Origin: an uncultured Gemmatimonadaceae bacterium
GTDB lineage: Bacteria > Gemmatimonadota > Gemmatimonadetes > Gemmatimonadales > Gemmatimonadaceae
DNA: 64,000 nt
NCBI GenBank assembly: GCA_963740355.1
Contig: CAVUDW010000003.1
Span: 992,001 to 1,056,000 of the forward strand
Reading direction: 5' to 3'
Shown piece after piece: positions 29,500 through 29,665 of the stretch (position 1 is the first letter of the stretch; every line of letters starts with the position of its first letter). A model generated the notes under the pieces. The model was given only the letters and a program-made list of their open reading frames with translations, made no database searches and was not told the DNA's origin. The translations under genes and the position numbers were made by a program.

Positions 29500-29665
29500 C
29501 GCGCGCCCTGCCTTGCGAGATGCGGGATCGCGTGGGCGTCCCTGGTAGCTGTCCGGGCTTGTAGCGATCGGGACGACGGCGCTCTGACTCTGCGACGGGC
29601 TCACGGCGCCCGGGGCGCTCCGAACGAGCTGCCGCCGTCCCGGAGATTTAGCTTCTGTGCGAGGA
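29500..29665 (-). ncRNA. Bridge RNA of the IS110 element (target-binding loop plus donor-binding loop)
   Basis: A 12-bp stem (29631-29642/29569-29580) encloses guide CGCAGAG, complementary to the core plus right flank. A second loop contains ACAGCUAC, identical to the donor end, and GCAAG. RNA ends are approximate. Confidence 0.8.

Follow-up and report, generated by a model that had tools for sequence, protein, structure and literature searches.

A multi-copy IS110-group insertion sequence with a two-loop left-end bridge RNA, inserted in REP-like octamer arrays of a Gemmatimonadota genome

The window (i.e., the whole 64,000-nt stretch of DNA that was analyzed) carries on its minus strand an insertion sequence of ~1.15 kb (1,148 bp counting one core), which is composed of a 195-nt left end, a gene for a 311-aa recombinase and a right end that extends 15 nt after the stop codon. 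On one side, the end of a gamma-glutamyltranspeptidase gene (PF01019, 6.6e-155) lies at a distance of 17 bp from the right core; the other neighbor is a 471-aa ORF without a Pfam match (29867–31282, minus strand), which has a signal-like N-terminus and a glycine-rich stretch. The features of the element and of its insertion site are as follows, with the basis of each in parentheses.

28526..29675 (−), whole IS110-group element, both CT cores included (seven copies in the genome aligned)
29676..29683 (−), left target half CTCTGCGC, which is the final octamer of a REP-like array (6/7 copies)
29674..29675 (−), left CT core (both junctions carry CT in 7/7 copies)
29669..29673 (−), right donor TGTAT, with which the left end begins (sequence and copy alignment)
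29666..29671 (−), −10-like TATGTC in the left end, part of a predicted junction promoter (computed right-end/left-end junction)
28543..29478 (−), recombinase gene, 311 aa, with a GGAGG ribosome site at 29487–29483 (Pfam and PDB matches)
28541..28546 (−), −35-like TTGACT in the right end, overlapping the stop codon (sequence; layout in relatives)
28528..28534 (−), left donor ACAGCTA, with which the right end closes (sequence and copy alignment)
28521..28527 (−), right CT core and right target CTGCG (identical in 7/7 copies)

The boundaries were fixed by aligning the seven copies of the element in the genome together with their flanks. The left junction reads ...CTCTGCGC|CT|TGTATGTC (core 29675–29674) and the right junction ...ACACAGCTA|CT|CTGCGTT (core 28527–28526), with no target duplication other than the CT core at the junctions; CT|TGTAT also opens the left end of most relatives. 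Inside these boundaries the seven copies are 96–100% identical, and outside them they are unrelated save for the shared target motif. All seven have an intact 311-aa frame and five are identical across the whole element, which implies recent movement. Furthermore, the element occurs on contigs from at least two other samples, with flanks that diverge at 29683 and 28519–28521, indicating other insertions into the same motif. The contigs of four DNA runs yielded only insertions with different flanks, with no joint for an empty site or a circle junction.

Three variants of the insertion sequence are present in the genome (loci L001–L007), namely the window copy, L002 and the five identical copies, and they differ by 21–43 nt in the gene and by at most 1 nt in the left end. 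Specifically, the window copy differs from the others at 34–43 of 936 ORF positions (26–32 of them third codon positions), which changes 7–9 amino acids, and from core to start codon at 1 of 197 positions, located in the apical loop of the donor stem-loop described below. Conservation of the left end thus exceeds that of synonymous sites (1/197 versus 26–32/312 third codon positions), and this low divergence points to strong constraint on, or conversion of, the RNA-coding end. A Fisher test on an illustrative 36/936, a value between the observed 34 and 43, gave p = 0.013 and was not relied upon.

The recombinase contains the domains PF01548 (DEDD_Tnp_IS110; 4e-26) and PF02371 (1e-15). Its best solved-structure match is the ISCro4 recombinase (PDB 9t56, depositors' name; E = 1.3e-34, residues 3–305), a comparison made by protein alone, and it also matches the IS621 recombinase (8wt6; E = 5.8e-32). 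Residues D7, E50, D92, D95 and S230 align with residues 13, 62, 104, 107 and 243 of 8wt6_A, which are the published catalytic residues D11, E60, D102, D105 and S241 if, as we infer, the 328-residue chain has two extra N-terminal residues; all five are invariant in an alignment of 14 homologs. A protein search returned thousands of homologs, and homologs 82–87% identical were seen as proteins; among the 120 listed, lengths were 310–317 aa and one was named Gemmatimonadaceae. An earlier note on this DNA, made from its letters, had described an intact and compact 311-aa ortholog. The intact frame and domains bear this out; the length is ordinary for the clade, in which the listed relatives have 310–317 aa. 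The deposited IS621 chain has 328 residues.

The same note had read a bridge RNA (i.e., an RNA that pairs with target and donor DNA through two internal loops) in the left end, and our re-reading of 28200–30000 found all of its strings, coordinates and minus-strand assignments correct. Scanning 28300–30000 against Rfam 15 with permissive E-values gave only chance miRNA-like matches on a neighboring hairpin and no bridge-RNA family; we therefore built our own covariance model, which has no curated threshold. A scan of one genome per species provided 80 loci with 46–60% identity from many phyla, whose upstream regions share the motif AGCCCGAACAGTTGCC.GGGCC...GAGCCCGCATC..GCAAGG..GGGC, with a more variable stem-loop upstream of it. 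The model alignment comprised 45 distinct left-end segments and excluded the window, its genome and the near-duplicate L066. RNAalifold recovered both stems of the first stem-loop, outer and inner, and of the second the inner one; the 4-bp outer stem of the second was placed by hand, giving a structure of 25 pairs. Across the alignment, 95.2% of 1,113 cells in this structure are standard pairs, compared to 36–47% with partners slid by 1–3 columns, and 20 of the 25 pairs display compensatory changes; none of 500 shuffles reached any observed measure. Such compensatory changes indicate selection on RNA (or single-strand) structure. The model matched the window at 29495–29648 on the minus strand over its full length (77.4 bits, E = 1.4e-19) with zero non-standard pairs, the next best match in the 64 kb scoring 13 bits, and in the whole genome it found exactly the seven copies. 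Thus, two checks that the earlier note had proposed, a covariance-model score and covariation among homologs, both came out in favor of the RNA, on a model derived from 45 relatives in other genomes. The parts of the RNA are listed below.

29569..29642 (−), target-binding loop: outer stem of 12+4 bp, internal loop, inner hairpin GGGC/GCCC (MFE fold and model)
29613..29621 (−), position of the left target guide, GGAGCGCCC (homologous position by model alignment)
29588..29594 (−), right target guide CGCAGAG, reverse complement of CT+CTGCG (7/7; in relatives it varies together with the right flank)
29586..29587 (−), target-loop handshake positions UC (pairing possible between the U and A 28528, which is donor position 7)
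29505..29558 (−), donor-binding loop with GCCC/GGGC as its outer and GGGA/UCCC as its inner stem (model alignment)
29545..29552 (−), left donor guide ACAGCUAC, identical to the right end ACAGCTA together with the core C (8/8)
29512..29521 (−), right donor guide AU-CUC-GCAAG, with GCAAG at 29516–29512 (discontiguous pairing with CTTGTAT)
29510..29511 (−), donor-loop handshake positions GC (complementary to target positions 7 and 6; C, 29676, and G, 29677)

The 12-bp stem that was said to close an internal loop is present as CGGGACGGCGGC (29642–29631) and GCCGUCGUCCCG (29580–29569), with one G-U pair. The target stem-loop is unusually stable (MFE z −4.5; 0/200 shuffles as stable), and its helices 1 and 2 are 95–96% paired across the 45 relatives, with compensatory changes in 15 of 17 pairs. 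Helices 3 and 4, which form the donor stem-loop, are 92–97% paired in relatives; taken alone, this stem-loop is thermodynamically ordinary (MFE z −0.26). The predicted fold of the left end depends on the segment that is folded: the MFE of the 138-nt core (29642–29505) is the two-loop form, but in the MFE of the whole left end (z −2.0) the target loop is present while the donor loop is paired with downstream sequence instead, so that the fold anticipated in the note is obtained from the core and not from the entire left end. Since the target is a tandem repeat, there is partial complementarity between the two target guides (29613–29621 and 29588–29594; GCG with CGC), and the MFE fold pairs them.

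Next, we analyzed whether the putative target guides follow the flanking host DNA. The ends of relatives were located by a CT|TGTAT-type motif together with a guide-like sequence after the stop codon, which kept 55 of 81 loci in a first set (26 were dropped for missing motifs or flanks) and 45 of 80 loci in a second set of metagenome contigs (35 dropped). The right target guide fitted its own flank at 7/7 anywhere in the loop in 29 of 47 distinct elements, compared to 11 of 2,146 mismatched pairs; when the guide was required to be in register on the alignment, the counts were 27/45 and 16/1,980, and in the metagenome-contig set 32/42 and 25/1,692. The left target guide followed the flank as well, with a fit of at least 8/9 to the own flank in 11 of 47 elements (45 of 2,156 mismatched pairs) and, in the metagenome-contig set, in 14 of 42 (44 of 1,716). 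In the window, CGCAGAG is, as had been claimed, the exact reverse complement of the core plus right flank, with 7/7 positions agreeing against independently fixed ends.

The donor guides agree with the element's own ends. The identity of ACAGCUAC with the right end holds at 8/8 against ends fixed by copy alignment, and the donor-guide variants of relatives are matched by their own right ends at 8/8 in 34 of 45 and at 7/8 in 11 of 45, a count with some circularity, since right ends were called only where at least 7/8 agreed. GCAAG is complementary to CTTGT with one G-T pair, as the note had it, and the full right donor guide can be read as A:T and U:A pairs, three looped-out bases (CUC), and then G-T, C:G, A:T, A:T and G:C. 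In IS621 from Escherichia coli, the structural paper, as far as its text was available, describes the counterpart as the bases A157-U158, flipped U159-U160, a non-canonical G161-dT12 and C162-G165; the looped-out bases thus number three in the window element and two U in IS621.

The text of the same paper further describes a handshake, in which the two bases that follow each 3′ guide pair with the other DNA once strands have been exchanged and must not pair with their own. Among relatives, the base that follows the right target guide is able to pair with donor position 7 in 45/45 (C:G 38, A:T 4, U:A 1, U:G 2) and pairs with its own target position 7 in 0/45; for the base that follows the right donor guide, pairing with target position 7 is possible in 40/43. 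The window fits at three of four handshake positions, with the second target-loop base, C, failing against donor position 6 (T), and neither first handshake position pairs with its own cognate position 7. Read from the letters, this handshake fit is independent support for a bridge RNA, and it was absent from the earlier note.

The left target guide of the window departs from this pattern. The note had presented the 5′ side of the loop, GGAGCGCCC, as sharing GCGCC with the left flank. This sharing is real and in register, but taken as a full guide the segment was overstated: only GCGCC (29618–29614) fits the GCGC|C of TCTGCGC+CT, giving 5/9 in register, which by count is within chance, since at least 5/9 in register is reached in 25% of mismatched pairs. 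The model inserts 3 nt in the left-guide loop, which has 13 nt here versus ~10 in most relatives. Six of the seven copies sit in CTCTGCGC|CT|CTGCG and the seventh (L007) keeps only GCGC beside the core; its left flank, ACACCGCGC|CT, retains the guide-matched positions −4 to −1, while of the three unmatched distal positions −5 and −7 are changed and −6 is the same. A 60% relative, L097, has the same 13-nt loop (AUCAAC-GCGCC-AA) and the left flank CCTTTGCGC|CT, so that GCGCC faces GCGC|C as in the window; its right guide CGCAAAG fits the CTTTGCG arrays of its left flank, the contig being without a right flank. Two further 60% relatives (L014 and L067) have AUCAUC-GUGGCC-G versus GCGGC|C. A metagenome scan for close relatives gave none above 60% identity. 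Taken together, L007 and L097 suggest that the left-guide match is real but short, with the subclade possibly reading only four or five left bases. It is conceivable, though we hold it at somewhat under even chances, that a Gemmatimonadota subclade (the window, L014/L067 and L097) has a remodeled target loop with a 13-nt 5′ side, in which only the core-adjacent 5–6 nt would act as the left guide and the first six (UUCGGA, AUCAUC or AUCAAC) would be a non-guide spacer.

We also examined the DNA into which the element is inserted. The element lies in the CTCTGCG octamer array that terminates a REP-like repeat, at the junction of the last two octamers. The inverted partner array of this unit is also present in the window.

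29815..29837 (−), inverted partner array CGCAGAG-ACGCAAAGG-CGCAGAG of the target's REP-like unit (sequence; inverted arrays of this kind flank units elsewhere in the genome)

The 14-mer TCTGCGCCTCTGCG occurs 13 times exactly in the genome and 84 times allowing one mismatch, compared to 29 for the reversed control. Eight sites that were examined proved to be intergenic units with two to three CGCAGAG octamers at one end and two to three inverted CTCTGCG octamers at the other, 150–400 bp apart, and the interior of the unit is rich in GCAGTTCTGCGGCTGTTC-like repeats. This genome-wide REP/MITE-like unit (loci L089–L096), which is the target of the insertion sequence, has a central hairpin and is often located directly after stop codons; in the window, a strong hairpin lies at 29717–29781. 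The guide-covered 11-mer GCGCCTCTGCG occurs 32 times in the genome versus 34 times for the reversed control, with 13 of the 32 in arrays. Three relatives showed other peculiarities of context. In L028 (~690–735) and L065 (~625–700), ahead of the recombinase gene, the left flank is a partial copy of the element's own left end that stops at the left-guide DNA (...GATTCATC|CT|TGTAT and ...GATTGTGC|CT|TGTAT, respectively); the guide-coding DNA mimics the left target half, so these elements seem to have inserted into another copy of themselves. In L055 (~850–900), a Dehalococcoidia relative, GGCCCAC heptamer repeats interrupt the 5′ part of the recombinase gene.

Joining the right end to the left end would create a putative promoter across the junction, with a function that we propose by analogy: the computed junction reads TTGACT-17 nt-TATGTC. 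This split layout, with TTGACA or TTGACT, 17 nt and then mostly TATCTT, is found in 33 of 47 distinct relatives, while the −10-like TATGTC of the window, without the final T, is a rare form (3/47 elements). With its observed anatomy, homology, copy number and target motif, and with covariation observed both within the RNA and between guides and targets, the stretch 28526–29675 on the minus strand is very probably a working IS110-group insertion sequence with a left-end two-loop bridge RNA and a DEDD/Ser recombinase. The RNA itself is a genuine bridge RNA, for which we infer transcription, binding to the protein, circle formation and catalysis. In the mechanism that IS621 suggests, the element would excise as a circle; the joined ends would place TTGACT 17 nt from TATGTC, and the resulting promoter would drive both the RNA and the recombinase. 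This RNA, whose core spans ~138 nt (29642–29505) directly upstream of the recombinase gene, would fold into two internal-loop stem-loops, of which the first would read the target and the second the donor junction. After strand exchange, the UC and GC that follow the 3′ guides could pair with the other DNA, and recombination at the CT core would insert the circle into GCGC-CT-CTGCG.

The rare −10-like form also bears on the alternative that the parts are complete but the lineage is inactive, either because the RNA is no longer made or because a weak −10 or the short left guide has crippled the element and left its copies as relics. Although the 5/9 fit of the left guide would agree with such decay, relics would not be expected to include five copies identical over the whole element and seven intact frames out of seven, nor a left end far better conserved than third codon positions (the 1/197 and 26–32/312 given above), and in at least two other samples there are contigs with the element between different flanks. 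We consider inactivity unlikely and retain the reading of a working element.

Comparison with IS621, an IS110-group element of E. coli, places the window element in a known class. Both have a recombinase of the DEDD and Ser type with aligned catalytic residues and, as far as the published text on IS621 was available, both have a left-end RNA with two internal loops of the same strand logic, a CT core, corresponding handshake positions, a −35 in the right end and a target in a repeated extragenic element; the right donor CTTGTAT is identical. The two-loop IS621-type architecture ascribed to the window is thus supported by the covariance-model match, the strand logic and the fits of donor and target guides. 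The note had also likened the donor to that of IS621. The letters available from the structural paper (dA6 dT7 dC8 dT9 dT10 dG11 dT12 dA13 dT14, i.e., ..AT-CT-TGTAT) agree with this for positions 6–14, with positions 1–5 lying outside that text. The two elements differ in their target, which is GCGC-CT-CTGCG in the window, the right target CTGCG bearing out the claim of a different natural target, and in the left donor (ACAGCTA in the window). Moreover, the left target guide would pair over 5 nt in a 13-nt loop in the window, compared to a pairing of 8–9 nt in IS621 according to the available text. Compared with IS621, again as described in that text, the window RNA probably lacks the 5′ stem-loop, since only ~17 nt separate the predicted start from the first stem.

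Sequence alone does not separate an RNA guide from a DNA repeat, and the guide matches could in principle be protein-binding sites or subterminal repeats acting only as DNA, with the left end serving as an ordinary structured 5′ leader. Against this stand the four helices, whose pairing is kept through compensatory changes in 20 of 25 pairs, and the guides, which change together with flanking host DNA outside the element and lie in the internal loops at just the places seen in the solved IS621 complex, as the text available on it describes; we hold a role as DNA alone to be very improbable. Assignment to the IS1111 group with a seekRNA-type guide in the right end, to which the shared protein family would lend itself, can be dismissed almost entirely because the right end of the window element, at 15 nt after the stop codon, leaves no room for such an RNA, while the 195-nt left end contains one. 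IS1111/seekRNA elements, in the literature available to us, likewise encode a guide RNA and belong to the same recombinase family, but they carry the RNA in a long right end and have a short left end and long subterminal repeats. The bridge-RNA element of the window has closer counterparts in its choice of target: ISPpu9 and ISPpu10 of Pseudomonas putida, in the accessible parts of the reports on them, likewise belong to IS110, occur in multiple copies and have extragenic repeats as insertion sites, and the ISPpu10 preprint proposes that target structure adds specificity. Unlike the targets described there, the host repeat of the window element is an inverted pair of CTCTGCG octamer arrays.

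According to the portion of the literature at hand, bridge RNAs have been predicted in 85.7% of ISfinder IS110s and in thousands of orthologs, so the kind is already known. The note's description of the element as a candidate programmable tool is in this light overstated, the element being one among thousands of predicted orthologs. A literature search on bridge RNA and Gemmatimonads found no paper, although the window element may already be listed among the predicted orthologs. It is a good new example of a known mechanism, mildly unusual only in that a short left guide sits in an enlarged loop; apart from this, it is an ordinary member of a family with thousands of predicted RNAs. The bridge RNA was readable straight from the raw sequence, and four guides as well as the handshake positions could be assigned without experiments. 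The element adds to the bridge recombinases a high-GC, multi-copy and apparently recently active ortholog with a natural target of 11–16 bp. If the short-guide reading is true, the element reads only ~11 bp (GCGC-CT-CTGCG) with the right guide dominant, the tandem-octamer or REP-like context might aid fidelity, and the element would represent a natural short-guide variant of bridge recombination. A short left guide, if real, would bear on how much left-half pairing is needed and thus on the off-target behavior of such tools.
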